From the IMG/VR virus record IMGVR_UViG_3300030419_005383, positions 10,296 to 74,295 of that record: a DNA stretch of 64,000 bases. One strand, written 5' to 3'. Under the pieces are notes generated by a model. That model had not been told where the DNA came from, searched no databases, and worked only from the letters and a program-made list of their open reading frames with translations. Below are positions 1 through 48,231 of the stretch, piece after piece. The translations under genes were made by a program, and so were the position numbers. This stretch comes from a virus. Numbering within the stretch: position 1 is the stretch's first letter; every line of letters starts with the position of its first letter.

Positions 1-1
1 T

Positions 2-190
2 GGCCGAGGCCCATACAGCGCAGTTGAGGTTGGATTTCCCAGTAAGGCCGAGCCACTGCTGATGAAGTGGGCTGAGGACCGAGATGATCCGACCAACACT
101 GTGTACGGCTGGGTACCGGCTGATGTCGTCAAGCGCGTGATAGCGAAGCATGGCGGCATGGTGGGGGGACAGTTGCCACGTTTTCAGTAG
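2..190 (+). CDS. 3' part of conserved phage hypothetical protein (truncated by window)
   Basis: Open frame GRGPYSAVEVGFPSKAEPLLMKWAEDRDDPTNTVYGWVPADVVKRVIAKHGG...* ending TAG at 188-190. The VEVGFPS / TVYGWVP / IAKHGG pattern resembles a widespread phage family. Confidence 0.75.
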   Translation, partial: GRGPYSAVEVGFPSKAEPLLMKWAEDRDDPTNTVYGWVPADVVKRVIAKHGGMVGGQLPRFQ

Positions 191-197
191 GCCCCAC

Positions 198-225
198 TTG
201 CCGCACCTTTGTTTGTGCTTACATT
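198..225 (+). promoter_or_regulatory. Early promoter class member (TTGCCG-N11-GTG-N2-TACATT)
   Basis: Same architecture at 2669, 3222, 4655 and 7300. Lies in the intergenic gap before a gene. Confidence 0.65.
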
Positions 226-262
226 AAAGATGTAACCACGAACCAACCTGAGAGAACCAACC

Positions 263-1003
263 ATGCCAGAAAGCACATTCAACAACTACAAGCTGAACAA
301 GTCGCTTGGCCTCAACTGGATGACCGCAGGAATGTCCATGTCGCCGGCCACCGAATCAATCGAGGTTGGTGGCCGAAACATGTGCCCCTGGTCTGGAGCG
401 TGCGAAAAGTCCTGCCTGAAGTTTGCTGGCCGAAACCGCAACGCTCAATCCAGGGTCGCCCGTCAACGGCGTACCATGTTTCGCCTTGAGGAATTGGGCG
501 GGTTCATCCGGCTTGTGTCGGGAGAGATTGAGGGACTGAAGCGCAAGGCCGCGAAAGAAGGAATGAAGGTCGCCTATCGGCCAAACGTCCTGAGCGACGA
601 CAGCGTGTTCGCCCTGAAGCTGGCCGAAGCAAACCCCGACGTGCAGTTCTACGACTACACCAAAATTCCCAAACCATGGAAACGGGTACGCGAGAACTAC
701 CACCTGACATACAGCCTCGACAACCACAACCACGCCGAAGCACTCGAAGCCATCGAGAACGGTATCAACGTCGCGGTTGCCTTTGACCTTGGCAAGGATG
801 AGCCACTGCCAGAAACCTGGCAGATCCCCGGCACCGATGTCGTGTTGCCAGTGATCAACGGTGACGAACATGACCTGCGATTCCTTGACCCGGTTGGTGT
901 CTTTGTTGCCCTCAAATTCAAAGGCAGCAAGGCTGAGCGAGCCAAAGCGGTTGCGGCTGGCTTTGTTTTCTCCCCAGTCACCATCATGGCTAAGGCGGCA
1001 TGA
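263..1003 (+). CDS. Gp88-like (radical-SAM-related) phage protein
   Basis: N-terminal CPWSGACEKSC cysteine motif plus RPNVLSD, VQFYDYTK, NYHLTYS, INGDEHDLRFLDP and LKFKG motifs typical of the gene product 88 family. Confidence 0.75.
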   Translation: MPESTFNNYKLNKSLGLNWMTAGMSMSPATESIEVGGRNMCPWSGACEKSCLKFAGRNRNAQSRVARQRRTMFRLEELGGFIRLVSGEIEGLKRKAAKEGMKVAYRPNVLSDDSVFALKLAEANPDVQFYDYTKIPKPWKRVRENYHLTYSLDNHNHAEALEAIENGINVAVAFDLGKDEPLPETWQIPGTDVVLPVINGDEHDLRFLDPVGVFVALKFKGSKAERAKAVAAGFVFSPVTIMAKAA

Positions 1004-3211: not shown

Positions 3212-3221
3212 AACCAAAGGG

Positions 3222-3249
3222 TTGACACACTATTAAATGTGCCTATCTT
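3222..3249 (+). promoter_or_regulatory. Early promoter class member (TTGACA-N11-GTG-CC-TATCTT)
   Basis: Consensus -35. GTGCCTATCTTAT is identical to 4672-4684. Confidence 0.75.
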
Positions 3250-3274
3250 ATATGTGAACCACAGGAGAGAACCA

Positions 3275-3877: not shown

Positions 3878-4065
3878 TGATGGAAACGAACGACAGACAT
3901 CTGCGGCTTGTCCGAAACGAACGACAAATGAAGGCTTTGCTGGATGACCTGGACCCGACACTGACGGCTCAGGTCATCCAAGACCTGCGAGCGATGCAGC
4001 CCGGCCAGGTCACCAACATCAAGGCAGGCGAAGTCATGCTGCGGGTCACCAGGGGCGGAACATGA
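3877..4065 (+). CDS. Hypothetical small protein
   Basis: Coupled ORF (TGATG overlap upstream, ATGA downstream). Confidence 0.55.
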   Translation: MMETNDRHLRLVRNERQMKALLDDLDPTLTAQVIQDLRAMQPGQVTNIKAGEVMLRVTRGGT

Positions 4066-24961: not shown

Positions 24962-27900
24962 TCATTCATCTATAGCAGATTCAGCTTGGCGTTTTTTCTC
25001 TACTGTTGCTTTAGACAAATCTCTCAGGGATGAGCGCAAGGCACGCTGAATCTTAGTTTCTTGCGTCTCTACAACATCAGGAACAATACCTATTACGCCC
25101 ATTGCCTCGCCGGGAGAGAACGCGGCAGGGTCTTCACCAGCAACCAGCTCTGTACGAGGCACCATTGTTTCCGCGGCAACCGTACCGGGTTGTGCTTGTA
25201 TGTATGTTGACGTACCAGGCAGTCTCACTCGCCTGTGTCGGGGCAAATAATGTGAATCAATGTCATCGAGAAACCCTTCACGGTTTCCGAACTGACGAAA
25301 TTGATAGCCAACCTCCAGCATGGATTCAACGGCGCCCATGTTTGCGCGATCTAAGCGATCAAAAAGCGTCATCTCACGCCCTGCAAAAGGTAAAGGCGCC
25401 ATATTTTTCCACATATGGAACAGCAGGGGACCAAGAGATCCGCCGGCTTTATAAGAGACAGTTTCTCCAGGCACCTTTTGATATTCAGGGTCACTTGGCC
25501 CCCAAACTTCCGCACCAAACAACTCGTCAACGACGTACCCCCCACTGGGGCCATACCGGTCAAGATTGACGAACCAAGATGGGATAGTGCCTGAACGCCG
25601 AAGGCTTCGATTGAAGTAGAAGTTTTGTTCAGTAACAGTGACAATTGGAAGCATTAAAACAGGGTTCGTCATCGAGATAAACTCTCGAAGACCCTGATCA
25701 CCTTGCTTGGTGCCATGGTAAGCAGCCGCATCGAAAAGGTTCAAGAAAGGCATCATTGCTGTAAAAGCGGGCAATTCAGGCGCATACCAGGCAACTTGCT
25801 TGTTTTTCATCCGGTTTAGAACCGACTTCATTGCAAACATGACCGGACGGCTTTCGAAGTAATGCTCTTCAACAAGGACAGGTTCTTCTTCAAGCCAGAG
25901 GTTCTTGCTGCCTTTGACCAGGCGCATCTGTGCCAGGATTCTGCCTGGGTTGGTCAACAACGTCTCGTAGAATAAATCCAGATTCTTGCGCTGGAAACTG
26001 TAAAACATAAACACAATACGCATGAAGGATTTTTCGAATTCAGTCAGCGCCGAATAGTCCATGCCGATCTTGCGCGCCCTCGCCGCGGCTTGACTGGGAG
26101 ACAGGCCGCGCTCTATTTCAGAAATCCAGACAGATACGCGGAAGATGTTGTCCATCGCGGTCGCGAATTCCAGAAGCGTTTCCTTCCAGGGTCGATAAAC
26201 TTTCTTAATGAATCCGGTCGGTGACTTATACCACGGGGCCGTGTCCAGCTTGTCTCGCAGAATCTCATGGACCGCTCTCGCTGATTCAGCCTGAGGGAAG
26301 CTGCTTTTCAAACTGTGGGCAATAGCCATATTACCGAGACGATTTGCTGTATATACACGGTAATCTTTCGTGATTAGGGGGCGCGCGTTTGGCTTCCAGC
26401 CACCCTCTCCCCACATTCTGGAAACAACAGCACCGACCAAATTGGAGTTCTTGGTAACCAGGCTTGTCCCCATCCTGGCCATGGTCGGAACTGCCTGCGC
26501 TGTAATTTTCCCCGCCTTTACCGCCCCAAGGCCTTGATGAACAGCCGCAGCAATTCCCATAAACGCGGCCATGTAGTACGGTAATTCAACCAGACCGGTC
26601 CCCGTTGTCATGTGCTGCTTCATTCTGGAGTGCGTCAACGGATTCAGCTCAAAAACGGTGTCAACGGCTTGAGCCAGTGTCAGCTTCGCCTTCTCGGTCG
26701 GGCCCAGGTCTTCTGGAATAAACTCAGGGCCAAGCTCTGTTCCTAACAGGCCCTTCTTGGTAGCCTTTAGGCGCCCCTTAGCGGCTATATCCTGCGCCTT
26801 ACGTGATTTTGCTCCCGTCCAGGCGTAGCCGATTTGAGACAGCCTATTGGTCATCTCTTCAATTTCTTTGATGGCGGCTTCCGGCAGTAAAGTAGTGCTC
26901 CCGTCAGGGAATGTGTGTTGTTGGAAACCTGATTTTGCGTACTTGATTCCCCATTTTTGAACATACTTATGCGCAACCGTGTAGGCCTCAAGATCATCAT
27001 TGTTTACGGTCAAGCGCCAGTCAGGTTGACGCGGTGGTTTTGGTCGCGGTGTTTGAAGCCTTCTTTTCTCAGGTTTTCTGATTGCTTGATAATTAAAGCT
27101 CATGATCTGATTGATGTGGTGATGCACATTCTCAACGAATGCGATTCGATCAATCGACGTGTCAGGTGAGAAGCCGCGGTGTGAGGTCAGTTCTCGGACA
27201 TCTCCCGTGTACCCGTACTTTGCCAGGTTGTGCGAAAGCACAGTCAAGATTTCCATGAACCGCATCCGCATGATCATTTCAAGAATCGCCGTTGCGGCGT
27301 CATACTCATACCCGCTAACAATCAGGCCCTTTTCTTGAGCCAGATTGATCATCTCCATGAATCTGCCTTGATAGAAATTCTGATAAATGCTGATCAGCTC
27401 ATACTCATCAAGGTTCTTCACAATGCTAAGATCATCGGCTCCAGACAAGGATATTGCCAGATTTTCGGCCCGAACCAATACTTGTTTTTTACGGCGAACA
27501 AGCCCATTGTGAATCACCCGGATCGCATCTGACACCGCATATCTGTCATTGTCAGACAGTTCCACCAAGCGGTCAGGATTGGTTGGGTCAATGTAAGATC
27601 GAATAATATCCAATGCTTGACGATCTTTTGGATGCAGCCCCCAGTATTCAGTCAAGTACCCCTGGATGTTGTCCAGCTTTCTAACCAACATCTGAAGATC
27701 GAAACCTTCATCCAATTGATCAATTTTGATGTCAAGTTCTTCTTGGGTTTTGAACCTTAGATCTTCACGGCTGATAACTCCAGACAGATCTCTTTCCATT
27801 TCTAAAATCGGTTTCAGGTCAGAAAGGGCAACAGGTGCATTGAGGTGCTCAATCAAGTGGTCATACAACTCTTGGACTGTTCCTTCCTTGTTGCCTTTTC

Positions 27901-30900
27901 TCCATTCAGAAACCGCACGAACAAAGAATCGTGGATTGTCTTCACCCAGCCGAAGCGAGTTGTTTATGAGGTCCCGAACCGCTGGGTCCATCAGGTCTTT
28001 GCCAAATTCTGGCACAATGAACAAATCGCGGAATTTCCTTCTGACGTTGTCGATTGATTTAAACAAAGCCCTGTTGTCAACTTTGTCGAAAACCTCGCCC
28101 ACATACCGAGTAAAGGCGAGGGCCAAGGAACGGCTCATTCGATCATCGTATCGATTGACTCGTGCAGCCACGCCTGCGCTTACATCAACCAGAACCTCAT
28201 GAATGTTTTGCCAGTCGGCAACCGCAATCTTTGTGAAGTCACTTTGACGGAAAAACCTGTCAGGCAGAATGTTGCCCATTGGTTCATTTGCCAGCTCATG
28301 TACCAAACGCTTGATGCGAGCAGCCTGAGGCGGATCAAACTCAATGTAGTCGGCCTCATCAAGCAACCGTGCGTTGGGGTCTTCCTGCATGTAAGATCGA
28401 ACAAGTCCGGTAGCATCGCCCCTGCTGACCAATTTGATTCGCTTGACAAGCTGCTTGGCGTTTTCACCAACAGCATCCATCAACCGGTCAGTGACATCTT
28501 TTTTGATTCGGGACACCCTGCTTGCTGGAACAATCGTCCGAATCGTCATCCTCACTACGTTTTCTGCACGCTGACTTCTCTTAAACCGCTCCGCTGCCTC
28601 TAAGCCCATAGAGCGAACAACAAGCGCGATTGCGTCGATCTCGTCTCCAGCCTTCACGCCAAGCTCTTGTCGCAACGACTCCTCATCGCCCATCAACCGC
28701 ATACCCGCACGCCTTCGACCGGCTTTTCCGACCGGTGATTCAAGAACCCGCTCAGCCATGGCTGTTGGCACCATTTCAGGTGAAATGTTCTTCAGTCGAG
28801 TGAACACATCCGAAACAATCCCTTTCGACACTTCTTTGAGAAAATCATCTGCCGACAAGGGGGGACCGAGCTTTTCGTCACCTCCTTCCAGTCGGAGCCT
28901 TAAGTCACGTCCTTCCAGTCTTTTCAAAACATCTGAAATGATCCCGTCCATTAAGCCTTGGATTAGATCATCAGGCAATTCTACTGGGACTCTCGAATCT
29001 GCCATAAGTTTACGAATAGCAGTATCAGCAATATCAGACGCAATGCGTTGAGCTACTTGCCGATCCCGTAAACGAAACACCTTCATCAGTGGAGTCAGTC
29101 CAGATTTGTCATCCGCTTGCGAGACGGTCCTGGCGACATATCCCTCGATGGACTTTTTCACGCGGCCAGCAACCGAACGCTTCAACTGAACGACTGGTCG
29201 CTTTTGAGTCTTCTTCAAAACGTCGTCGGTGATCTTTGCGGCAGGCATAGCCAGCAGCTCGGACGGCCTGTACAGCTCATCCCAGAACTCAGCCAGGTGC
29301 TTCGGCAAATTGTGACGCTTCTGACGGATTAGGCGCCAAAGATTGCGAAGCTCACCGTGAAGCTGACCAATCAGTCGATTCACGCCTGGATTGTACGAAG
29401 CCCTCTTGGTTTCCCACCATTGAGCAAGGGCATTAGCAAATTGTTCGTGTCCAGCGTCAGTAAGTCGCCCGTTTTGGTCTGTATCAAAAAAGCGGAATAG
29501 CCAGCTTCGCCACTTGTCACCCATAATGGCCTGCAACAAGTGTCCATTTTCATGAGCAAGTGTATCAAAGCGCCCAGTCGAGAAAAGGCGAAGTAGATAC
29601 GAGGCCGTTCCAGACTCGTCCGTTCGAACTTCGAAACTGCCGCGTGGAGAATCCGGCCCGCCGTCGTAGCGAATCGATGTTGGAAGAGCAGGCTTGGCCT
29701 CAGTCGGAGCTATCCGAAAGGCATCCGCGAGGACATCAAGGACTGTATCATCTGGTTGAACTCCGAATCGCTCAATGGCTCTGTCGTAGGCTGCGCGGTT
29801 GACGCTTGGGTGCTCGTACCAGTTTCCTCCAGCTTCTTGGGAGAGTCTGGCGAGGTACTTTCCTGTTGGTTCTCCTTCTGGCTGCCGGGGGAGGATTCGT
29901 TCTTCTGGGGAGAGTTTTTTGAGGACATCTTTGGCATGGGATTTAATCTCTTTTTCGAATTTATTTTTTGACTTTAGATCAAACCCAAAGATTCGACCAT
30001 CGGAGGTGGCGGCAGCAAGTATGCCGTTTCCGTGGACAGGATCCAGAGCATGCAGATCTGCTTTCGGGACGTTTACATAATAGAAACCCAGGATGGGTGA
30101 CCTCTGCTCACCCATCCGAACATAGACACCACGATAGGGTGATTCCAGCCCAAACATCTCTTTGACCAGCGCCTCGCCAGTGGAATGCGAGATGAGCTGC
30201 TGGTTCGCCGCTACCCATGTTTCCCAATGGAAGCGACCAATGGAAGCATCTTCTGGACGGCCCAATTTCTTATAGACTTCGGGTACGATCTTATTAAGGG
30301 CGCCTTCCACGGCCTCATAGAACAGAAGACCGCGGGGCCCATCAAATACCGACGCAAGACCTGGTTTTTGGGACCATGGCCGAAATGATGCGGTGCTTTT
30401 GTATCCACCTTTTGGCGCCTGCCATCCAGTGTTCAGACTGCCGGGATTTCCGTATTCATTGGCCCGATTCGCGTAGTCATAGATGTGCCTGGTCTGCCAT
30501 ACATCCAAAACAGCCGTATCGGGTCGCCCTGCCATCAAAGCGACAAAGCTCATCACTTTGTTTTGAATGCCGACCCCCTGGCTCATCGTCCAGAATTGCC
30601 GGCGCACTTCGCTTCCAGACAGATTTTGGTCGGACATCAGTCTATGTATGGCCTCCAGTTTAGTCATGCCTGGATACCGATCATGATTTACAGGCAACCG
30701 CTCGCTCATCCGCCTCAAGAACAGATCACCAAACGCATTGAGATTCATCAACGCCTGTGTGCCTGGAGAGCCCGAATACTTGTTAAGATTCACGATGGCC
30801 CGAGCACGCTTCCGCCAGGCGGCTTGCCAAACGTCATCCCATTCGCCGCGCAGAGCGACATTGATGAATTCGTCTACGCCAGCATTGACGGCATCAATGA

Positions 30901-33900
30901 ATCCTGCCTCTTGAATCCAAACAGAAGAATTTCGGCTGAGCATGCCCCACAGAAACAGCTTCGCTGTATGGCGCGGTTGAGCCCGCCCGGCGGCATATGC
31001 TTCGCCAAATTTCTCAACAACACTAAAGCCTTCATTTACAGCGCTCTGCTGTTCAGCCGTGAGGTTCTCTTTCAGGAAATCAACAACCGCATCAGGGTTG
31101 TTGTAGTATTCGATCATCTTATACGGGGGCTTCACCACGTTCTTATCATTCGTGGCGTTAAACCAGAACTTCTTCCATTCGGCTTCACTCGAAAGCATCT
31201 TGCCTTCTGGCCAACGCTCCAGCAAGGCATCGATTTTAGCTAATACATCGTCACCACGGCGGGTCGGATTCAATGGAAGGGCCTTTTCCTTCACGCTGTC
31301 ACGGGGCTTGAACCTCGTCTTGATCGCCATCGGGGCCGGAACAGCAGCGAGAACCTCAATTCTGAACGCCTCACGAATCCGTCTACGTTCTTGTTCTGGT
31401 AGAGCCTCACGCTCGGCCTTGGGCATCTTTGCGTACTTGGCCAGCGCCTTTTTTCCTATGGGAACAATTGGCGTCTGCTTGGAATCCAGAAACGCCTCAA
31501 CGTCTTGGTCCGTGAATTCGGCGCCTTCATGTTCAGCCAGGTCGCGTGTAATTTTTGGCGGGACTGGCGCCTTGCTGGGTAATGGCTCTACCATTCCCGC
31601 TGGAGGGGCCACAGATGGTTCCCCTTCTCTGGGGGCCGTCAAAAGATCATGCTGAATCCTCATGGCCTCAGAAAGCGCGTTTCTGTCTGTTTTCGCGATT
31701 CCGAGCGCATCAGCCACCCACGAAAGCAGCCGGCTCCAAACCGACTCCTGGGTGTCAACGAACACGATGTCTTTCAATATTGACTGGAATTCTGGATTAG
31801 AAAACGCTTCAGCAAGAAACTCCTTTGCGTTTTTCAATCCATAAGGAAGGGTTCTCACCACCGGTTCATCGTCAACTATAAGTTGTTCCAAATAGTCAAC
31901 TTCCTCACCGAGAGTCTCTCTTCTTTCTTCTTGCCTCAAGTAGCCATCAAGCCTGTCTCTGACGTACTCCCAAAGATGATCCAACTCTATAGAGGCTTTT
32001 CCCAATGGGGTTGACGGGCCCTCACCTAAGCCTTCGTTGTACCGCATTACGGTTGCTGCATGGACCAGCTCATGGAGCGCGGTTTTTTCCCAATCGCCAG
32101 ACCGCAGCTTTTCATTGGGTTGATATAGATCGATATGGGGACTAGGCCGACCCGGCCCGAGCCAATAGTATATTCCCGTCCAACCCTCTGGATGCGCGGC
32201 CTCTGTGGTTTCTATCGATACATCATCGGTGATGAACTCTTCAATATATGCAGCGATGGCCCTTATTTGATCGGTTGTTCCGTTCTCTTTTATCCAGTAG
32301 ACAGCCTCTTTTGCGCTTTTCCACTGCTTGGCTGCTTTTCTAAATTTAAGATTTGAATCAGCACGAATACTGGGCGGGATTGGCATGGGTGTACGGATCG
32401 CAGGACGTGCGCCATTCCAGAAAACCCTGGAATCTAAGCCTCGGTAAATCAAATTGTAACGATGTAGCGCACGTGAAACGTCACTTGAGTCCGCATCTCT
32501 TACAGCATCAACCAACCGAAGCGCCTCTTCGGCAGCTCCACCAGCCTGAAGAATCCTTGCTTCAACGGCCTTCCAGTCGATAGTGTCGTCAACTTCAATA
32601 AATTCTTTGAATAAAGAATCGATAAATTCATCACTGAAAACATCGCCTATATCGTCAAGAAGTCGTCTGGCCTCACCAAAAGCGACCTGCCTGAATGTTT
32701 TAATCGCAGGAAGAATCTTCTCTTGGTATTCCTTGATGGAGCCGATTTCGGTCAGTAGTTCACGGGCCTCTTCATAAATCGCCCGATCAACATCGTTTAG
32801 TTCTTGGTCCTTGAGACCCATGAACCGTGAAAAGTCTGCTGGTGTATTGAACGCCCTGCTTACCACATCTGTTGATACGCGCTTCTTAATGCCATCGGCC
32901 TTTATCCTTGCTTGTACTCGATCTTTTCTCTCTTTTTCTCGCTTAATCACGGCCCGTTCTGGCCCTGTATACCGAGACAGACCTTTGGTTTGAGATTCAA
33001 ACCTATCTTCGGCCTTAGCATAGGCGTCGAAAACTGCTTCATCGTTCGCCAGAGTGAGTGCAGACGCCTTGCGGAGGACTGTTCGCTTTAACGCTTGAGC
33101 CATCGGAGAGACCCACTTGTACTCAATGGACAGTTCAGAACCTATCGGTAAACCGCCACGGCGAACTTGATATTCGCGATTGATGCCACGAAACAGTGAG
33201 GTCCATTCATCCGATTGAAAAATAGAATGAAGTTCAGCATTGAGACCGAGCTGTGTTTTGGTGTCTTTGAGGCCCTCAATCAATCCGTACAAATCGCTCC
33301 GCCGAATGTTTTTCTGATCAAACCGCTCAATCACGCCCTCATAAACATCTTCTATCGTCCATGGTTCTCTGTCCAAAAGATGCGACTTTTTGAGGCTACC
33401 CTTATCTGAAATTAGAGGCTCAATATCTTTAAGTGCAGCCCGAAGAGCATCTATGGCGCCTTCTGGAATCCCTTTAAGTACAGCGCCTTCTGGAACTTGA
33501 GTGAGATCCTGAAGGATTCTTTCTATGTTGTTGAGGTCACTCCAAACGAGGCGTTCTGCCATTTTGACCTGTTGACTAAAAATACCCCCAATGGCCCTGA
33601 TCGCATGCCAGGGTGTATATTCAAATCGGCCATATTTGGTTTCAGCCGAGAGGCGGGTTCCCATTGTTGCGGTTTCAATCAATTGACGAATGCTGCCGTA
33701 GCCACTCTCAACATCGAGATCTTCCGGCCTGTTGGCGTTCCAGGCTCTCTCAAGCGAGTTCTTGACCCACGATGCTGACTCAAGCAAATAGTTCGGCCAT
33801 GCTTTCGGCAGCTCAGGGGGCTTGTCAGGGGGCTTAAGGATAACTTCCGGGTCAAGCGAAGGCAGCGGATCTCTGGCGCCCTCGACGCGCGGGGATGTCA

Positions 33901-36900
33901 GCCAGTCGGCGGGGCGCTCCATAAGCTCTACATCAACAACAATCTTCTTTTTGCCCATTCCGCGCAGGGCTTCAAGACGATGCCGACCATCCATGATGCT
34001 GTGGAATGTTCCGTCTGCATTGATGGCGACTCTTGGCGGGGCCATAGGTTTACCCGACTTAATGAACTCAATCGCTCCTTTCAGTCTTCCGCTTCCCCAT
34101 AGTTTCTGTACAGGAATGTCATCGATGTTGACGACACGGGGCTCTATGTATTCCAATCCGGCAAGGGTTCCTGAGTCTTGACGCATCAACTCTTCTACGT
34201 CATGACCCATTTCTATGATCTCGTCGCGCATTTCCCGAGCCCGGTCTGCCCGAGATCGATACGACACACCCTCGACTTCAGTCACCGCTTCAACTGGTTG
34301 ACCTAAGACCTCGACGCGGGCGGGGGGCTCTACACCCTCTGGCGTTTGAAAACGAGCACCAGGCCCAGGTTGACCGCCAACCCGATGGTTAATCTTTTTG
34401 AAGAAATCAATCGGGGTGACGATGTCAGGAATCATATCGTCAGATGAATGAGCAAGCGCCTGATGCTCAAGAAGCGCAAGATGTATGACCAAGTCCTGGT
34501 CCGTCAGGTTCCCCGCTTTGATGTATTCGCTCAGCTCATCCTTTACGCGCAGATACTCAGGGTCTTTGCGCATACTCATTTCAGTCGGGGTTCCGTGCTG
34601 TAGAAACCGCTGCAAATTTCCCGTGTAAAGAGAACGGCGACCTTTCATTGCGTTGTTGAAGGTCTTGATAAATTCTTCTGTGTCCTCAACGCCCGTCTCT
34701 TTGAGTCGGTTCTCGAAGGCCTCCAACCGATACCCACTCATGCTGTCCAGGGGGCTGATCCCCAGCTCGATCATCTTTGCAGCCAATTGCATTGTTGCGT
34801 TGTTGACCGCAGAAACCGCGTCCAAGTCTTCCTTTTTCTGAGGGTCTAAGGCGGCTTCTTCTGGTGGCTTCACAACCCTTTGATAAATCTCAGGTCCGAC
34901 ATACGCTGACATCATGTGCGTAGCCATAGACAGCTTACTTGTAATCGGGGCGCCATCTAATGCTTGAACCGCCCTTTTGGCTGCAACCGAACCCCGCAAT
35001 GCGTTTGCGGATCTTCTTACGCCAAACCCAAGCGTTCTGAAAATTGGAGATTCCCAAGGAACAAGGAAGTCCGCCGAAAGACCGCCAAGCATTCCATACA
35101 TCCAGTAACCTTCACCAGGCCTGCCTCCGTTTGCCATCATGGCTCTTCGCGTTGCCATCATCGCACCAGAGTCACCAGTAGCCACGTTAGCCAGGCTTTC
35201 CGCCATCCAGCCGGTCAAAGTCAACTCTTGATTCTTGTCTTTGACTCCAAGTACCTGATTCAGAGAATCGCCCGCAAAAACCGGAGCATCCATCAAAAGC
35301 TGTAATTGCGGCTCCATCAGCAGGTCCGCACTTCTCATGACCCGGCTCATGGTCCCTTCAATCAAGTAAAGCTGATTCCCTTCCCGAACAGTGGTTGTCA
35401 TATAGGAACCAACCGACTCTTCGAGCTTTGTGGTCGGAGCCGCACGTTCAATCATGCGTCCAGTTGTCTCGATGACTGATGCCGTATCAGGAACAGATTC
35501 AGCGAACTTGAAGTTCATTGAAACCAAGGTTCCAAATTTCACCTGATTCAGCCAGTTTTGGACTTCAGACAAGTCCACTTCATCTTCGACATCATCTCCA
35601 GCCAAATCGAGTATCGTCTCAGTAATCCAAGGCCAGTCCGATGTGCCGTAGGCAGCATTCATCGCCTTGCCAAGGTTGCGGTCGTACCTCGCCCAAGATT
35701 CATAAGTCTTACGCTGTTCCGGTGTTGCCTCTTGCAAAATATGAACAAAAAGACGCACATCCGGCATCCGTGTGGGTCCGCCATACTCCTGCCTGAGACT
35801 GCCTGGAACATCCACATATGAGACATTCTGCATCTGATCTAAAAGAATTCCAGAAACGTTCGAGTCTGGATTTTCCTTCGCATACCGAACAGTTTCCATC
35901 AACTGAGCCCAAGCATCCGACCACTTGGCTTCTGAAGTTCGGACTCTGCGCTCTAAATAATATGCGCCCCTTTCCTCAGGGGTCATGAAAGAAGCGCCGG
36001 CAACGCGCTCAAAGAAATCGTTGCTCTTTTCATGAAATTCTCGATAGAGCTGAGCCATCGACTTCAACGCTGGAACGCCTTCTCGCTCCTCATCAGACGA
36101 CAATGCGGTTGTGACAAGCAGTGCCGGCAACTGCATAGGCGAAACGGTTGCAACGCTTGACGGAGGCAGCGATTCCATTGCCTCAATCTGACGAGCAAGC
36201 GGAATCCCGGCAGCGAGAATGTTGTCCATTGCGGTAGCTGATTCAGGGTCCGTATCGACAAGCTCCTGCCGCGCTGACCGGATCTTCATATTGGCTTCTT
36301 GAACGCCTTTTGCCCACTCTTCAACTTCAGCATCTGCCTGTTCAGGCGTCTTGCCGTCCATATGGACCTTCTTCTGCTTCAATACATACCGGGCTCCCTC
36401 AAAAGCCTGCGCCATACCTTCGGCAGTAAGCTCTTCCGCCATATTGCCTGCGCGGGAAAGCTCAGTCACATCCAGGGTTCGGTTGAAAAGGTCCGCCAAG
36501 TAGCCTGGGTCGTCAATCTCGTGAGCCAGAGCTGTTCCACCAGCAGCGCCACCCATTGCTCCAACAATCCAGCCGCCAGGAATCTTCAGCCGGGAAGCCA
36601 AAACAGAACCACCCGCTGCGCCAACTATGGCTAATTCTTCCGCAAACTCAGGAACGTCAGGAAGGTCCCCCTCTGTGATCTCTTCCTTAAAGGCCGGCTG
36701 CGTGACTCCGATCATTACATCTTTGAGGCCCCTGAGAAGCTCTCCAGACTCCTGCGCTTTATCCAGGGTCTCTTTGTACTCCGCTTTTCTTTTCGCGGGT
36801 TCATCAGGATCAATAGGCTCGGTGACTGGCAGCACTCTCGGCCCAAAGACTGTCTTACCTTTTTCGATCGTGGCGCCGGGCGTCTCGTCGCCTGGGATTC

Positions 36901-37144
36901 CCTCTATAAATCGAAACCCATCCTCTGCTTCCCGAACCCTTAAATCAATCCATTCGTCAGATTTGGTCGGGTTATCCACCTTGAGGGCTGCTCTGACCTG
37001 CTCGCCAAGCTCACTAATGCCCGCTTCATAGGCCTCACGGAGGTCTTCGCCTGTCCTTATTTCAAAGCGCGGATCAGGAGCGGGGCCAAGAACTTCTGCC
37101 GTTTCTTCAGTGACCTCGGTTCCCTCAAGCGTCTCTTCAGCCAT
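24962..37144 (-). CDS. Giant 4060-aa ejection-type polyvalent protein (ParB-like, two HExxH zincin-like domains, HhH-GPD glycosylase-like domain)
   Basis: DGRHRLEA (res 1052), HELVH (1691), K2196/D2214 HhH, HENGH (2531), C-terminal DYSALTEFEK..FYSFQRKN. Follows the SLT ejection protein. Confidence 0.9.
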   Translation of the reverse strand: MAEETLEGTEVTEETAEVLGPAPDPRFEIRTGEDLREAYEAGISELGEQVRAALKVDNPTKSDEWIDLRVREAEDGFRFIEGIPGDETPGATIEKGKTVFGPRVLPVTEPIDPDEPAKRKAEYKETLDKAQESGELLRGLKDVMIGVTQPAFKEEITEGDLPDVPEFAEELAIVGAAGGSVLASRLKIPGGWIVGAMGGAAGGTALAHEIDDPGYLADLFNRTLDVTELSRAGNMAEELTAEGMAQAFEGARYVLKQKKVHMDGKTPEQADAEVEEWAKGVQEANMKIRSARQELVDTDPESATAMDNILAAGIPLARQIEAMESLPPSSVATVSPMQLPALLVTTALSSDEEREGVPALKSMAQLYREFHEKSNDFFERVAGASFMTPEERGAYYLERRVRTSEAKWSDAWAQLMETVRYAKENPDSNVSGILLDQMQNVSYVDVPGSLRQEYGGPTRMPDVRLFVHILQEATPEQRKTYESWARYDRNLGKAMNAAYGTSDWPWITETILDLAGDDVEDEVDLSEVQNWLNQVKFGTLVSMNFKFAESVPDTASVIETTGRMIERAAPTTKLEESVGSYMTTTVREGNQLYLIEGTMSRVMRSADLLMEPQLQLLMDAPVFAGDSLNQVLGVKDKNQELTLTGWMAESLANVATGDSGAMMATRRAMMANGGRPGEGYWMYGMLGGLSADFLVPWESPIFRTLGFGVRRSANALRGSVAAKRAVQALDGAPITSKLSMATHMMSAYVGPEIYQRVVKPPEEAALDPQKKEDLDAVSAVNNATMQLAAKMIELGISPLDSMSGYRLEAFENRLKETGVEDTEEFIKTFNNAMKGRRSLYTGNLQRFLQHGTPTEMSMRKDPEYLRVKDELSEYIKAGNLTDQDLVIHLALLEHQALAHSSDDMIPDIVTPIDFFKKINHRVGGQPGPGARFQTPEGVEPPARVEVLGQPVEAVTEVEGVSYRSRADRAREMRDEIIEMGHDVEELMRQDSGTLAGLEYIEPRVVNIDDIPVQKLWGSGRLKGAIEFIKSGKPMAPPRVAINADGTFHSIMDGRHRLEALRGMGKKKIVVDVELMERPADWLTSPRVEGARDPLPSLDPEVILKPPDKPPELPKAWPNYLLESASWVKNSLERAWNANRPEDLDVESGYGSIRQLIETATMGTRLSAETKYGRFEYTPWHAIRAIGGIFSQQVKMAERLVWSDLNNIERILQDLTQVPEGAVLKGIPEGAIDALRAALKDIEPLISDKGSLKKSHLLDREPWTIEDVYEGVIERFDQKNIRRSDLYGLIEGLKDTKTQLGLNAELHSIFQSDEWTSLFRGINREYQVRRGGLPIGSELSIEYKWVSPMAQALKRTVLRKASALTLANDEAVFDAYAKAEDRFESQTKGLSRYTGPERAVIKREKERKDRVQARIKADGIKKRVSTDVVSRAFNTPADFSRFMGLKDQELNDVDRAIYEEARELLTEIGSIKEYQEKILPAIKTFRQVAFGEARRLLDDIGDVFSDEFIDSLFKEFIEVDDTIDWKAVEARILQAGGAAEEALRLVDAVRDADSSDVSRALHRYNLIYRGLDSRVFWNGARPAIRTPMPIPPSIRADSNLKFRKAAKQWKSAKEAVYWIKENGTTDQIRAIAAYIEEFITDDVSIETTEAAHPEGWTGIYYWLGPGRPSPHIDLYQPNEKLRSGDWEKTALHELVHAATVMRYNEGLGEGPSTPLGKASIELDHLWEYVRDRLDGYLRQEERRETLGEEVDYLEQLIVDDEPVVRTLPYGLKNAKEFLAEAFSNPEFQSILKDIVFVDTQESVWSRLLSWVADALGIAKTDRNALSEAMRIQHDLLTAPREGEPSVAPPAGMVEPLPSKAPVPPKITRDLAEHEGAEFTDQDVEAFLDSKQTPIVPIGKKALAKYAKMPKAEREALPEQERRRIREAFRIEVLAAVPAPMAIKTRFKPRDSVKEKALPLNPTRRGDDVLAKIDALLERWPEGKMLSSEAEWKKFWFNATNDKNVVKPPYKMIEYYNNPDAVVDFLKENLTAEQQSAVNEGFSVVEKFGEAYAAGRAQPRHTAKLFLWGMLSRNSSVWIQEAGFIDAVNAGVDEFINVALRGEWDDVWQAAWRKRARAIVNLNKYSGSPGTQALMNLNAFGDLFLRRMSERLPVNHDRYPGMTKLEAIHRLMSDQNLSGSEVRRQFWTMSQGVGIQNKVMSFVALMAGRPDTAVLDVWQTRHIYDYANRANEYGNPGSLNTGWQAPKGGYKSTASFRPWSQKPGLASVFDGPRGLLFYEAVEGALNKIVPEVYKKLGRPEDASIGRFHWETWVAANQQLISHSTGEALVKEMFGLESPYRGVYVRMGEQRSPILGFYYVNVPKADLHALDPVHGNGILAAATSDGRIFGFDLKSKNKFEKEIKSHAKDVLKKLSPEERILPRQPEGEPTGKYLARLSQEAGGNWYEHPSVNRAAYDRAIERFGVQPDDTVLDVLADAFRIAPTEAKPALPTSIRYDGGPDSPRGSFEVRTDESGTASYLLRLFSTGRFDTLAHENGHLLQAIMGDKWRSWLFRFFDTDQNGRLTDAGHEQFANALAQWWETKRASYNPGVNRLIGQLHGELRNLWRLIRQKRHNLPKHLAEFWDELYRPSELLAMPAAKITDDVLKKTQKRPVVQLKRSVAGRVKKSIEGYVARTVSQADDKSGLTPLMKVFRLRDRQVAQRIASDIADTAIRKLMADSRVPVELPDDLIQGLMDGIISDVLKRLEGRDLRLRLEGGDEKLGPPLSADDFLKEVSKGIVSDVFTRLKNISPEMVPTAMAERVLESPVGKAGRRRAGMRLMGDEESLRQELGVKAGDEIDAIALVVRSMGLEAAERFKRSQRAENVVRMTIRTIVPASRVSRIKKDVTDRLMDAVGENAKQLVKRIKLVSRGDATGLVRSYMQEDPNARLLDEADYIEFDPPQAARIKRLVHELANEPMGNILPDRFFRQSDFTKIAVADWQNIHEVLVDVSAGVAARVNRYDDRMSRSLALAFTRYVGEVFDKVDNRALFKSIDNVRRKFRDLFIVPEFGKDLMDPAVRDLINNSLRLGEDNPRFFVRAVSEWRKGNKEGTVQELYDHLIEHLNAPVALSDLKPILEMERDLSGVISREDLRFKTQEELDIKIDQLDEGFDLQMLVRKLDNIQGYLTEYWGLHPKDRQALDIIRSYIDPTNPDRLVELSDNDRYAVSDAIRVIHNGLVRRKKQVLVRAENLAISLSGADDLSIVKNLDEYELISIYQNFYQGRFMEMINLAQEKGLIVSGYEYDAATAILEMIMRMRFMEILTVLSHNLAKYGYTGDVRELTSHRGFSPDTSIDRIAFVENVHHHINQIMSFNYQAIRKPEKRRLQTPRPKPPRQPDWRLTVNNDDLEAYTVAHKYVQKWGIKYAKSGFQQHTFPDGSTTLLPEAAIKEIEEMTNRLSQIGYAWTGAKSRKAQDIAAKGRLKATKKGLLGTELGPEFIPEDLGPTEKAKLTLAQAVDTVFELNPLTHSRMKQHMTTGTGLVELPYYMAAFMGIAAAVHQGLGAVKAGKITAQAVPTMARMGTSLVTKNSNLVGAVVSRMWGEGGWKPNARPLITKDYRVYTANRLGNMAIAHSLKSSFPQAESARAVHEILRDKLDTAPWYKSPTGFIKKVYRPWKETLLEFATAMDNIFRVSVWISEIERGLSPSQAAARARKIGMDYSALTEFEKSFMRIVFMFYSFQRKNLDLFYETLLTNPGRILAQMRLVKGSKNLWLEEEPVLVEEHYFESRPVMFAMKSVLNRMKNKQVAWYAPELPAFTAMMPFLNLFDAAAYHGTKQGDQGLREFISMTNPVLMLPIVTVTEQNFYFNRSLRRSGTIPSWFVNLDRYGPSGGYVVDELFGAEVWGPSDPEYQKVPGETVSYKAGGSLGPLLFHMWKNMAPLPFAGREMTLFDRLDRANMGAVESMLEVGYQFRQFGNREGFLDDIDSHYLPRHRRVRLPGTSTYIQAQPGTVAAETMVPRTELVAGEDPAAFSPGEAMGVIGIVPDVVETQETKIQRALRSSLRDLSKATVEKKRQAESAIDE

Positions 37145-37194: not shown

Positions 37195-40100
37195 TCATGG
37201 CCCCATGGCGTCTACAAGCTCATCGGTGCCCTGTTGGTTTTGTAGATCCCAGGTGGGGGCTAGTCCTTGATTGTCCCGAATCACCTTCAACGCTGCATCA
37301 TATTTACCCACATATTTTCTGGTCTCAGGGTGAAGTCCGCGATCATCACGGTTCTTGGTTTTAAATTCAGCGCGAGGATTTCGTAATGCCACTGTAAGGT
37401 TTCCTGGGCCGGTATTGTATGCCGCAGCGGAAAGTCTCCACGCATCTTCCTCAGAGTCTGCGTGAGAAGCGAACTTTTTGTGCAACATCTTTAGATACCG
37501 GGCCGCAGCATCAGCCTGTTCTCTCCAGTCTTGATAGTTCCTCGGATCAATCTTGAGATCTTCGCTGGCGGTTTTTGGCATGATCTGAAACATGCCTTGA
37601 GCACCAGCCTTGCTTATCGCTCCTGGCTTGAACCTGGATTCAACCCAAGCAATACCCTGCAACATACCTGGGGGAAGGCCGTACCTTTCCTCTATACGGA
37701 AAAAGTGGTCCCTCATTTCCTTGGGAACCCTCTCATTAAAGAGTCCATCATAGTTTTTCTTGTAGCCAAGGATGTACTTGTCTGGGCTATCAAAAGCTCC
37801 AGCTTCATCTAAAACCGTCCCACCAACACCACCAACAACCCTGGGGCCCGACTCGCCTGGCTCTGGCTCGACATCTTCCACGGTCATATCGCCAACTGCG
37901 CTTTTGAACTGGGGCTCGTCGCCTTCCATCCGCATCTGGTCCACTGCGCTTTTGAACTGAGGCTCGTCGCCTTCCATCTCTTCGCTCGTGGCTTCCCCGA
38001 TTTTTGTTTCTCCAGCATCTTGCTCAAGTGGAACATCAGATCTGGCCCACTCCAGGGCCTGCTGCAACGCGCTTTCTGATGGCCCAATGTTCTGCAACGC
38101 TCGATTAGCCGCGCCTGCTTGAGTCTGGTAACGGGCCTGGTTTGCTTTTTCGTTTTCAACTTGTTGGATGGATTTCTGAAGTTGAGATTGTAGGTCTGCG
38201 ATCTTCTGGTCGTGCTTTTCCTTCGCCTGTTGATAGGCGGCAACCTTCATGGTCTCTTTGTCACGATCATCTTGTCGAACAATTTCTCCATGCCGACCCA
38301 GTGTTCGTTCGTCTTTCCAGTGACCAGCAGCTTTCATCCTTGCAGAGCGGTCGTTAAAACTTGCCAATTCATCATCAATTTCTTGCTGTAGCTGACCGGC
38401 CACAGGGCCAAGTTGGGCGATATTTTTTCTGCTTTCGGTAGCCATCCGGCCATAATACTTCCTCGCGTCTTCCGTGCTTTTGCGCTTTTGCGCTAAGTCC
38501 AAGACCTGTTGACGCTGATCCCGTTGCGACATCAGTCCAAAACCAGGGATTACATTCTCAAGACCCGCGACCGCCTCATCTGACAGTGCCGGCATAGCCT
38601 CGGCTGGAGGCGGCGGCTCTCCCGCGGCCAATGGCCCGACTGGAGGCGGGGGAGTGTCAAACAAGCCATCAAACTCTTTTTTAGCTGCCTTAGCCTCAGC
38701 CCCAGAAGCCGCAGTGTAGAACGAGTCCTGTAGCTCAAGGTCAGTCGCGTCAACTACACGATCTGAAAGCGGCACAGGAGCCTGCTCCGGTCCAAGTCTT
38801 CCCGCCTCGCGGGCTAGTCTTCTTCCTTCACGCACAGCTTGACGCTGGCCTCTTGCTGCCTGCCGGGCTTTAGTCAATTCTTCCTGACCCGTTCCAAACA
38901 CTTCTCCAGCGGGCTCTGCATCTTCTACGGCAAGGTCTTCTGGAGCAACTTCGCCGAATTCAAATTGTTCCTCTTCAGGAAGAGCGCCTTCTGTATCTTC
39001 TACGGCAATCTGTTTCGGAGCAACTTCGCCGAATTCAAATTGTTCCTCTTCAGGAAGAGCGCCTTCTGTATCTTCTACGGCAATCTGTTTCGGATGAACT
39101 TTGCCGAATTGAACCTGTGACACCGATTTGGCCGGATCGATTGGATCCAAGGCGTCAAATGGCACACTCAAGTCTAATTCAGCGAGCCTACCCATGAAGT
39201 TACCGAAAACGCTTGTGCCTGCCTGGCGGGCCTCTCTTGCTTCCTGGCGCTCACCGATTCGTTGTAGCTTCGCCGCATGACGAGCCGCACTTGTTTCCTG
39301 GCGCTCACCGATTCGCTCTCGCTTCGCCTCATGGCGCTTACCGAACCGTTCTGTCCGCCGCTTGTATCGATCAAGTGCCGGTGACACTTCACGGAAACCG
39401 GACGGAGCCATATACTCGCCGTAATACTGCTGGCTCCTATATGGGAGACCGGCCATCCTCATCAATTCAGCATGCTGTCGCGAGGCGCTCAATTGTGAAG
39501 GTGCTGATTCCCCAGAAAAATCAATGTTGCCCATCTTCTCAGCTTGTTCAAAAAGCTTAGCAGATGTGCTGTCTTTGGCCATTTCGTCAATTGCCGCAGT
39601 TATGTCAGCTTCGCTATAGACCGGAAATTCAGACTGAATGTAGGGACCAGGCTCCTGACCAGCAAAAAAATCAGCCTTTAGCCCTTGGGTGATTGAATCG
39701 TCTGCACCATGCTCCTCCATCATTGCGTCATAGATTATTCGATTCAAAGCGAGCTTCTTGGCTCTATATGTATTTGCATCTTTGCTTTTTAGGTCTCCCA
39801 CGATGTTCCCTGACATCCTTCTCAATTGGCGTAGCGCGGTATCGGTATCGGGCCAGGTAGTGCGCTTGTAGTCCCTTAAAACCTTATCCACGGCGTCAAT
39901 TTGTTTCTGAGTCAACTCAAGACGCTTTTCATTATCTACGCTAATGCCTCTCAGTTGGTTGGAGAGTTTTACCTCCCGATCCTGTTCGGACTCTTTCAGT
40001 GAGCCCGCTGTCCTGATGAGGGAGGGGCCCATTGTTTGGAAGAGCCTGGCTTGCTGCGAAGCTGGAGAATACTTCTGCTGAGCCTCCCACCTCTTCAGGG

Positions 40101-40209
40101 CGTCTGCATCGCTGAGACCACCCAGCGAATATTGCGAAGCTGCCGATGGCTGTGGCGACATAAGAATTTGAGCCAGAAGCTGGTCTGCGACTGTTTTTGT
40201 TTTTGCCAT
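37195..40209 (-). CDS. Internal virion protein with C-terminal lytic transglycosylase (SLT) domain
   Basis: IAWVESRFKPGAISKAGAQGMFQIMPKTA, AAAYNTGPG, ETRKYV. Confidence 0.9.
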   Translation of the reverse strand: MAKTKTVADQLLAQILMSPQPSAASQYSLGGLSDADALKRWEAQQKYSPASQQARLFQTMGPSLIRTAGSLKESEQDREVKLSNQLRGISVDNEKRLELTQKQIDAVDKVLRDYKRTTWPDTDTALRQLRRMSGNIVGDLKSKDANTYRAKKLALNRIIYDAMMEEHGADDSITQGLKADFFAGQEPGPYIQSEFPVYSEADITAAIDEMAKDSTSAKLFEQAEKMGNIDFSGESAPSQLSASRQHAELMRMAGLPYRSQQYYGEYMAPSGFREVSPALDRYKRRTERFGKRHEAKRERIGERQETSAARHAAKLQRIGERQEAREARQAGTSVFGNFMGRLAELDLSVPFDALDPIDPAKSVSQVQFGKVHPKQIAVEDTEGALPEEEQFEFGEVAPKQIAVEDTEGALPEEEQFEFGEVAPEDLAVEDAEPAGEVFGTGQEELTKARQAARGQRQAVREGRRLAREAGRLGPEQAPVPLSDRVVDATDLELQDSFYTAASGAEAKAAKKEFDGLFDTPPPPVGPLAAGEPPPPAEAMPALSDEAVAGLENVIPGFGLMSQRDQRQQVLDLAQKRKSTEDARKYYGRMATESRKNIAQLGPVAGQLQQEIDDELASFNDRSARMKAAGHWKDERTLGRHGEIVRQDDRDKETMKVAAYQQAKEKHDQKIADLQSQLQKSIQQVENEKANQARYQTQAGAANRALQNIGPSESALQQALEWARSDVPLEQDAGETKIGEATSEEMEGDEPQFKSAVDQMRMEGDEPQFKSAVGDMTVEDVEPEPGESGPRVVGGVGGTVLDEAGAFDSPDKYILGYKKNYDGLFNERVPKEMRDHFFRIEERYGLPPGMLQGIAWVESRFKPGAISKAGAQGMFQIMPKTASEDLKIDPRNYQDWREQADAAARYLKMLHKKFASHADSEEDAWRLSAAAYNTGPGNLTVALRNPRAEFKTKNRDDRGLHPETRKYVGKYDAALKVIRDNQGLAPTWDLQNQQGTDELVDAMGP
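37896..37978 (-). repeat. 48-bp coding tandem repeat (MEGDEPQFKSAV x2)
   Basis: Direct inspection. Confidence 0.8.
38920..39112 (-). repeat. 75-bp coding tandem repeat (KQIAVEDTEGALPEEEQFEFGEVAP, ~2.5 copies)
   Basis: Exact copies at 38942-39016 and 39017-39091. Confidence 0.9.
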
Positions 40210-44014: not shown

Positions 44015-44721
44015 CTGTACCTCGCACGAATCAAAAGTTCCCTTTGCTTCATGGTGAAAGTAAAGTCCGCACCAACAAAGTAGCTTGTGTTTTGATTCAT
44101 GTTGAGGTGGTCTTGCTCCACAATCTTAAGGCTCTGCTCTAAGTAGACGAGCTGCGCTTCAAGTTGAACAATATGACTCCCAGCTACTACTGGAATGGCT
44201 CCTACCAAATAAGCTGAATCACGAGCCCTTCTCGCTGAAGAAAACCCAGTTTCAGAAACAATCATTCCATCTACTGACAGGCGGAACCTGCAAAGAGTCG
44301 ATGTCGGGTCTCTCTTAAGGGTGACACTTGTCGATGAAGAGTCTGTTCCGGGGACCTGAAGCCAGTCAGGATCAGTTGCATCATATGACCACTTCCAACC
44401 GCCAGACCATTCAACCATCAACAACGCATCAGCCTCAACCTCTATTGTTCTTCTGCTGATATTTGTGTTGTCAACGTCCTCGTACTGCCAGTCTGTTGTA
44501 GATGAAACAAGCGCCGAAGAGTCAGTGCTCGAAGATGTAGACCAGAATTGATTACAGGCATTAACTGCCAGCATGTCTTTCTTAATGAAATTGGCTGGAA
44601 AATTATCACGGTCCAGATTCCCGTTGAATTCTTCGGCGAAATTCGTGTGATTCAGATTCCAATCATCTGGATCAATCACGTCACCAGATTCGAATGCTCT
44701 TTTCTGATACCGAAAAGCCAT
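44011..44721 (-). CDS. Tail-associated protein
   Basis: FESGDVIDPDDWN...NGNLDRDNF. Confidence 0.7.
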   Translation of the reverse strand: MAFRYQKRAFESGDVIDPDDWNLNHTNFAEEFNGNLDRDNFPANFIKKDMLAVNACNQFWSTSSSTDSSALVSSTTDWQYEDVDNTNISRRTIEVEADALLMVEWSGGWKWSYDATDPDWLQVPGTDSSSTSVTLKRDPTSTLCRFRLSVDGMIVSETGFSSARRARDSAYLVGAIPVVAGSHIVQLEAQLVYLEQSLKIVEQDHLNMNQNTSYFVGADFTFTMKQRELLIRARYR

Positions 44722-48175: not shown

Positions 48176-48188
48176 GGACCTTTCCTCC

Positions 48189-48231
48189 AATAGAAAACCG
48201 GCGACCGAGCACATTGTACCCCGGTCGCCGG
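48189..48231 (-). terminator. Rho-independent terminator after capsid genes
   Basis: CCGGCGACCG/CGGTCGCCGG stem followed by TTTTCTATT on the - strand. Confidence 0.8.

Follow-up and report, generated by a model that had tools for sequence, protein, structure and literature searches.

The window analysed here is a stretch of 64,000 nt of marine phage DNA (positions 10,296 to 74,295) that makes up most of the virus record IMGVR_UViG_3300030419_005383 (IMG/VR; 74,295 bp, rated complete by CheckV). On its minus strand, the list of open reading frames (ORFs) and their translations give one very large gene of 12,183 nt, encoding a protein of 4060 amino acids (aa), P0001. According to the predicted structure, residues ~2012–2320 of this protein form a helix-hairpin-helix (HhH) domain of the HhH-GPD type, like that of the Ogg2 8-oxoguanine (8-oxoG) glycosylases. 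The explanation favoured here, with moderate confidence and largely on the strength of that model, is that the conserved module containing this domain is an injected, Ogg2-like bifunctional DNA glycosylase/apurinic-apyrimidinic (AP) lyase, that its target is a base other than 8-oxoG, and that it has a small partner gene in the +1 frame of the same ORF.

An AlphaFold2 model of residues 1945–2465, built on an alignment profile of 26 module sequences (A1), has a mean predicted local distance difference test score (pLDDT) of 78.3 and a predicted template-modelling score (pTM) of 0.79. The top six Foldseek matches in the Protein Data Bank (PDB) are all Ogg2 structures (3fhf, 3knt, 3n0u, 3fhg), with probability 1.00 and template-modelling (TM) scores on target length of 0.67–0.73. 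In a VIA-align fold search covering 48,161 representative chains the best match was the Tm1821 Ogg (3n0u), at Z 14.0–14.1 and a root-mean-square deviation (rmsd) of 3.2 Å over 207 of 209 residues (model residues 68–376); the other Ogg2 structures came close behind (3fhg, Z 13.9; 3knt, 13.7; 3fhf, 13.6). Across the four superpositions the rmsd is 3.1–3.5 Å, with 205–211 of 207–214 residues aligned and the chains covered from residue 1 to 207. Next in order are OGG1 (Z 10.4), endonuclease III (9.5–10.1), CacOgg (9.1), Qng1/DUF2419 (8.6–9.1) and ROS1 (8.8), followed lower down by Mag1, MagIII, NTHL1, AfAlkA, MUTYH, AlkA, MutY, Nth, MIG, AGOG and MBD4: more than 20 further HhH-GPD enzymes lie beneath Ogg2, at Z 5–10.4. 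A Z of 14 is not by itself decisive for a helical protein; here, all of the strong matches come from a single superfamily, and the alignment spans the target chain in full. A sequence-only reading of this stretch had proposed an HhH-GPD domain at this place and had set the predicted fold beforehand as one of the results that could overturn it; the superposition of the model on four Ogg2 structures, at Z 13.6–14.1, leaves it standing.

Secondary structure in the model (assigned by DSSP) follows the expected HhH-GPD order: a helix at model residues 233–243, the hairpin SQGVGIQ, a helix at 251–260 that starts at N2195-K2196, the loop AGRPDTAVL, and D2214 opening a helix at 271–277. Around this core the module has several parts of its own. 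The Ogg2 superposition begins at model residue 68–75, so that an N-terminal extension of 67 residues, with a conserved proline (P2007) near its end, is absent from Ogg2. An insertion after the Asp, disordered in the model, differs in length by up to ~55 residues among relatives in A1, and the last core helix (residues 2303–2320) is, on the model, likely to be a wall of the base pocket. The C-terminal subdomain of ~140 residues had no fold match, the fold searches barely covering residues 2321–2460, and contains residues conserved over the 197 homologous modules used for all residue counts given here (G2345 in 196/197, Y2356 in 191/197, W2442 in 184/197).

The Lys/Asp pair lies in GIQNKVMSFVALMAGRPDTAVLDVWQTR (residues 2192–2219, window 30488–30571). 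Translation bears out the sequence-only reading here: K2196 (codon 30557–30559) and D2214 (codon 30503–30505) are 18 residues apart, and LFLWGMLSRNSS (residues 2063–2074), FHWETW (residues 2305–2310) and the HELVH and HENGH motifs discussed below are all where it had placed them. It had likened the Lys–Asp spacing to that of the catalytic pair of E. coli Nth, and Ogg2 enzymes have this spacing too: the catalytic residues of Methanocaldococcus jannaschii Ogg (MjaOgg) are Lys129 and Asp147, and those of SsoOgg, from S. solfataricus, Lys128 and Asp146 (PMC5069365), again 18 apart.

K2196 is present in 197 of the 197 modules and D2214 in 195, and much of their surroundings is as constant: G2206, N2134 and R2181 in 197, D2209, F2200, H2167 and E2277 in 196, and N2195 in 191. 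The same is true of the last core helix (H2306, W2310 and H2320 in 196; W2307 and Q2316 in 195), and to a lesser degree of the hairpin glycines (G2190 in 168/197, G2192 in 185/197). Altogether ~20 polar or aromatic pocket residues are near-invariant, along with the Lys and Asp, across members that are otherwise 25–40% identical, and such invariance is, as far as alignments can tell, the pattern of an active enzyme. It speaks against one alternative, namely that the module is non-catalytic and keeps the HhH-GPD fold for DNA binding or as part of the ejection apparatus, for example to hold the leading DNA end. The ~100 extra core residues, the two extra subdomains and an unusual valine after the Asp in this copy (see below) would be in keeping with such a role, which is nevertheless judged very improbable.

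The likeness to Ogg2 extends to sequence over a short range. A 57-column profile of the Lys/Asp motif (A2) gave a single match among PDB sequences at E ≤ 10, M. jannaschii Ogg (3fhf, E 0.94); the alignment places ..G..D..V.DR onto FLRNVGYDDVAIIDRH, with D2214 on the Asp of ...GYDDVAIIDRH. The aligned Asp is residue 154 of the 3fhf construct; because that construct has 214 residues and the native enzyme 207, it is taken to be native Asp147 by a seven-residue offset. A chance motif match was considered and ruled out on two grounds, the constancy of the Lys/Asp pair and its agreement with the fold.

Ogg2 and the module have in common the HhH hairpin, the Gly-rich loop and a ...G..D..V/A.(I/L)D motif, together with an aromatic residue at Lys+4 and a Trp-bearing last helix. 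In MjaOgg, His133 and Trp198 sandwich the flipped base, and the C-terminal Lys207 tells 8-oxoG from G (PMC5069365). By spacing, F2200 stands four residues past K2196 as His133 does past Lys129, and by position W2307 and W2310 stand in the last helix as Trp198 does. The differences from Ogg2 (3fhf and 3knt from M. jannaschii, 3fhg from S. solfataricus, 3n0u from T. maritima) are several: the module is only 12–16% identical to it, with no significant Pfam or PDB sequence match; its core has 309 residues against 207, in addition to the N- and C-terminal subdomains; it has a small nested ORF behind it; and whereas Ogg2 is a stand-alone enzyme of ~207 aa, the module is internal to a 4060-aa phage protein whose chain runs on for 1740 residues.

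This last difference bears on specificity. Every Ogg2 superposition ends by pairing chain residue 207 with H2320 (model residue 376): the free-end lysine of Ogg2 is replaced in the module by an internal, invariant histidine. Because the domain is internal, a chain-end lysine is not possible there unless the protein is cleaved at exactly that point, and because of the replacement the target base is, on the model, probably not 8-oxoG. An alternative to which this is directly relevant is own-genome repair, in which a packaged Ogg-type enzyme would remove oxidised or sunlight-damaged bases from the entering phage DNA before transcription and replication. The nearest solved structures are indeed 8-oxoG glycosylases, the phage and nearly all of its relatives are uncultured environmental viruses, and neither a polymerase nor a repair glycosylase is encoded among the window ORFs scanned. 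Against it stand the absent chain-end lysine with H2320 in its place, the presence of a putative dedicated nested partner, which would not be expected for a repair enzyme, and the exchange of the module with ADP-ribosyltransferase (ART) and RNA polymerase cargo, which would not be expected either; on balance, own-genome repair is considered unlikely.

Human OGG1, endonuclease III/NTHL1 and ROS1/DEMETER have the same fold (Z 8.8–10.4) and the same Lys/Asp chemistry, and are weaker matches than Ogg2. The module is without the N-terminal domain of OGG1, and because cysteines are not conserved in the module family, it would have no iron-sulphur cluster.

Several points weigh against the glycosylase/lyase explanation. 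Neither PF00730 (HhH-GPD) nor PF22175 (Ogg-HhH) of Pfam had a match at E ≤ 1–10 in the protein, the domain or the 26 members, and PF22175 had none in this genome, yet matches in three control genomes; alignment of the family with E. coli Nth by hhalign gave nothing. The case for HhH-GPD membership is made by predicted structure and one short motif, and the pocket equivalences described above, drawn from spacing and from alignment end-points, are approximate. Position 2215 in this copy is Val (window 30500–30502, minus strand), in place of the Arg found in 194/197 relatives and in MjOgg; position 2314 is also unusual, with Asn in place of the Ser found in 183/197. V2215 need not be disabling, since human OGG1 also carries Val after its Asp. 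The family core is mostly mildly acidic (median isoelectric point (pI) 5.8, net charge -5), which is unusual for a DNA enzyme; the core of this copy is basic (pI 8.7). The peptides encoded by the nested ORFs are of low complexity, with pI values from 4.4 to 12. Finally, a functional Lys/Asp pair is also used by Qng1, an enzyme of this fold that is specific for nucleotides.

Another possibility, then, is that the module is a nucleotide or nucleoside N-glycosidase like Qng1/DUF2419, hydrolysing a free nucleotide such as a host defence signal or a modified nucleotide. Qng1 has the same fold, with the longest aligned lengths (233–249 residues), and the acidity of most family cores counts in favour of this reading; polyvalent proteins, moreover, have been proposed to carry enzymes acting on nucleotide signals (PMC7824862). 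However, Ogg2 is clearly the better match (Z ~14 against 8.6–9.1, with the entire Ogg2 chain covered), 85–94% of members retain the G-h-G hairpin, the part in contact with the DNA backbone, and the Lys and Asp are 18 residues apart, like those of Ogg2 and Nth, whereas Lys199 and Asp231 of Qng1 are separated by 32. This makes an N-glycosidase decidedly improbable.

As a sequence family the module is widespread among giant proteins. A search with residues 2000–2350 found 49 proteins of 2257–4207 aa, at E 1e-45 to 1e-55, and the extents of the BLAST matches in these relatives define a homologous block at P0001 residues ~1945–2460. Its position is not fixed: it is placed anywhere between residues 91 and 2188 in these relatives, and modules occur at differing positions in proteins of 2.2–6 thousand amino acids. 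Precomputed Pfam domains in module-bearing relatives include LPD38, LPD22, ART-PolyVal, one RNA_pol and one acetyltransferase. In P0012 the module comes immediately after an ART-PolyVal ADP-ribosyltransferase domain (residues 729–859), and in P0003 immediately after a single-subunit RNA polymerase domain of the T7/N4 type (residues 1368–1684), placements that suggest cassette-like exchange and possibly functional coupling with ART. That the module is itself one of the Pfam LPDs was ruled out, LPD38 lying far downstream of it. Against 1.8 billion proteins the A1 profile matched 463 cluster representatives (clustered at 50% identity) at E ≤ 1e-3, 317 of them at E ≤ 1e-30; short carriers of 426–916 aa were also found, all unnamed.

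Matches in BFVD were limited to entries named "uncharacterized protein, uncultured Caudovirales phage", and neither this phage's module nor that of L001 matched any of 50,697 GenBank phage records by tblastn. Pfam and PHROGs did not recognise the module in the giant protein or in the isolated domain, Pfam gave only noise for the 26 aligned members at E ≤ 10, and phmmer and the full-module profile found nothing significant among PDB sequences; the family is named in none of Pfam, PHROGs, UniProt or the polyvalent-protein survey cited below. Because the curated sequence models and hhalign miss it, the module would be a separate sequence family within the HhH-GPD fold. As predicted here, it is a new HhH-GPD family shuffled among giant polyvalent proteins of phages, of known fold and chemistry; its sequence family and setting are new, and its specificity is probably new as well.

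Directly behind the module, the +1 frame of the giant gene holds an ATG-initiated ORF of 75 codons, which the sequence-only reading had overlooked. Only one other same-strand ORF in the alternate frames of the 12.2-kb gene starts with ATG and reaches 70 aa, and such ORFs cover 2.2% of the alternate-frame positions. The other alternate-frame ATG ORFs of ≥60 aa, both also in +1, are at 28180–28476 (minus strand, 98 aa) and 25369–25554 (minus strand, 61 aa); the former was considered as a gene and set aside, its product being rich in C, W, L and S and looking like out-of-frame noise. A +1 ORF of 50–90 codons is present in 25 of 25 related loci, starting 265–469 nt (mostly 295–346 nt) after HWETW, and in the marine clade loci it is often preceded by AAAGGA. 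The nested peptides share a short hydrophobic C-terminal motif.

Dual coding was assessed in seven disjoint pairs of related loci. Synonymous differences in the giant frame amount to 44% outside the ORF and only 20% within it (Fisher p = 4e-13); the fraction is lower inside in six of the seven pairs, individually significantly so in four, and about equal in the seventh, which has three codons inside. Differences at codon positions 1, 2 and 3 change from 0.18/0.11/0.48 outside to 0.23/0.12/0.25 inside, the kind of shift expected if position 1 of the giant frame doubles as position 3 in another coding frame. The giant's own frame is open and conserved throughout this region in A1. No close relatives of residues 2321–2480 were found in metagenome contigs, and the dual-coding signature comes from related loci only. 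Such a small, complete ORF, offset by +1 within a larger gene, recalls Rz1 inside Rz of phage lambda, an embedded out-of-frame phage gene, with a dual-coding pattern found here in the relatives; whereas Rz1 belongs to a lysis gene, the candidate nested gene is embedded in one for a putative virion effector.

The genomic setting suggests a virion protein (Table 1). The giant gene belongs to a terminase–portal–capsid–adaptor operon, directly downstream of the gene for an SLT-domain protein (1004 aa) of internal-virion type; this is the position of podovirus ejection and internal-core proteins. Since the gene sits where those genes sit, a virion location of the 4060-aa protein can reasonably be inferred. 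The early region, on the plus strand, has genes for a primase, RecT, a YqaJ exonuclease and two helicases (VapE and SF2); the window ORFs scanned included none for a DNA-modification enzyme, and the portal protein had no match in the 50,697 GenBank phage records.

Table 1. Coordinates of the module, its predicted parts and other features of the window; residue numbers are those of P0001.
Feature	Window position	Strand	Basis
Conserved mobile module, residues 1945-2465 as modelled	29750..31312	-	BLAST extents in 49 giant relatives, alignment A1
N-terminal helical extension, residues 1945-2011	31112..31312	-	model helices 20-83, outside or at the edge of the Ogg2 superposition
Predicted HhH-GPD (Ogg2-like) catalytic core, residues 2012-2320	30185..31111	-	VIA-align, Foldseek; model 68..376 vs chain 1..207
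Predicted helix-hairpin-helix, residues 2177-2204, G-V-G hairpin with K2196 at the start of the second helix	30533..30616	-	DSSP, conservation
Gly/Pro loop and predicted catalytic Asp, residues 2205-2214 (AGRPDTAVLD)	30503..30532	-	conservation, MjOgg alignment
Variable low-confidence insertion after the Asp, residues 2233-2262	30359..30448	-	pLDDT <50, model 289-318
GRFHWETWVA...Q...H motif in the last core helix, residues 2303-2320	30185..30238	-	conservation, superposition end-point
C-terminal beta/alpha subdomain, residues 2321-2460	29765..30184	-	model strands 397-444, helices 446-516
Nested 75-codon ATG ORF, +1 frame of giant gene, candidate partner gene	29710..29937	-	292 nt after HWETW
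HELVH, residues 1691-1695, upstream of module	32060..32074	-	motif position
HENGH (residues 2531-2535) and HEQFA (E2567), zincin-type signature downstream of module	29435..29554	-	conservation in 6 relatives
Giant gene (P0001), putative polyvalent virion protein bearing the module	24962..37144	-	ORF list, translation
1004-aa protein with SLT lytic transglycosylase domain	37195-40209	-	PHROGs: internal virion protein with endolysin domain
Nozzle or internal-protein-like gene	44721-46868	-	structural operon gene order
SU10-type adaptor	46865-48214	-	structural operon gene order
Major head protein	48760-49806	-	structural operon gene order
Portal	52129-54336	-	structural operon gene order
Large terminase	54346-55908	-	structural operon gene order

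The giant protein is built of at least five conserved blocks. Its C-terminal 1250 residues (2800–4051; window 24992–28747, minus strand) are 23–31% identical in five other giants of 3822–6086 aa (P0009, P0174, P0185, P0181 and P0195); no named family matched them, and they are possibly the ejection or channel-forming part of the protein. Near the N-terminus, residues 177–207 (window 36524–36616, minus strand) form a Gly-rich hydrophobic patch with a weak match, under the cut-off, to a glycine-zipper 2TM family (PF05433, E 0.012), which could be a membrane-inserting segment of an ejection protein. Residues 1052–1060 (window 33965–33991, minus strand) include a ParB/sulfiredoxin-like DGRHRLEAL motif, with no Pfam ParB match at E ≤ 1. 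A public protein fragment of 1310 aa, P0072, is 100% identical to P0001 residues 1172–2480; going by this identity, the same or a near-identical phage would therefore have been assembled elsewhere as a partial gene.

Two HExxH motifs flank the module. Downstream, H2531, E2532, H2535 and E2567 are invariant in six giant relatives that also share the C-terminal 1250 residues, and HENGH with E2567 fits a gluzincin signature at the level of sequence. A pattern scan of IMG/VR and a search of five related virus records found nothing related to the region, which also matched no Pfam or PHROGs family; the ESM Atlas gave unnamed viral clusters and faint leads to LPD1/LPD5 and LPD23. An AlphaFold2 model from six sequences was poor (pLDDT 52) and its Foldseek matches meaningless, leaving a peptidase reading of the HENGH region neither supported nor rejected. 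The upstream HELVH had no Pfam or PHROG match, and the proteins related to it are viral and unnamed. The sequence-only reading suggested that these flanking HExxH domains may release the glycosylase-like domain, which is possible.

Polyvalent proteins of phages and conjugative elements, which are described as injected and draw on a repertoire of LPD, ART and MPTase domains (Iyer, Burroughs, Anand, de Souza, Aravind 2017; PMC5512222), are the closest known setting for such a protein. The resemblance lies in a giant multi-domain protein within a virion gene block, in shuffling with LPD38, LPD22, ART-PolyVal and RNA polymerase, and in HExxH signatures like those that have been proposed to serve in their processing (PMC5512222); it differs in that this phage's own giant protein has no Pfam LPD match. 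A glycosylase is never named in the 2017 survey, which mentions HhH once, in another context (PMC5512222), and among the papers searched none ties a DNA glycosylase to a polyvalent or ejection protein.

Assuming the module is an active glycosylase/lyase, its mechanism may be sketched from the solved members of the family. The helix-hairpin-helix would grip the DNA backbone, and a base would be flipped into a pocket lined by F2200 and by the helix bearing the invariant H2306, W2307, W2310 and H2320. D2214 would activate K2196 for attack on C1' of the sugar; the base would be removed through a Schiff base, and the strand nicked by beta-elimination, making the enzyme a bifunctional glycosylase/AP lyase. 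The domain would be exchangeable cargo of a polyvalent protein packed in a podovirus particle, entering the host with the DNA: delivery by the virion is probable, judging from gene position and from what has been proposed for polyvalent proteins. The product of the small +1-frame gene would be a dedicated partner, and may restrain the enzyme in the producing cell. If it does, the module is more likely a conflict effector acting at DNA entry than a housekeeping repair enzyme.

A more specific form of this idea is that the module and the nested ORF are an enzyme–inhibitor pair encoded in two frames of one virion gene: at entry, the injected glycosylase/lyase would attack either a base that marks the host's DNA or a modification placed on phage DNA by host defence, and the small protein would silence it in the cell where it is made. 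This is possible, and is put forward tentatively, as a proposal that is rather doubtful as a whole. If true, the effectors that phages inject would gain a new class, and the HhH-GPD fold a new base specificity.

Base-excision enzymes have a known role in cellular repair and a more recently recognised one in defence against phages; a widespread base-cutting enzyme delivered by phages would be the opposite case. With a pocket unlike that of Ogg2, the module could point to a new substrate, for instance a modified base or one installed by a defence system, and could supply a new tool enzyme; the family, besides being large, is compact and easy to express. If the nested partner ORF is real, it would represent a class of unannotated genes missed by standard callers.

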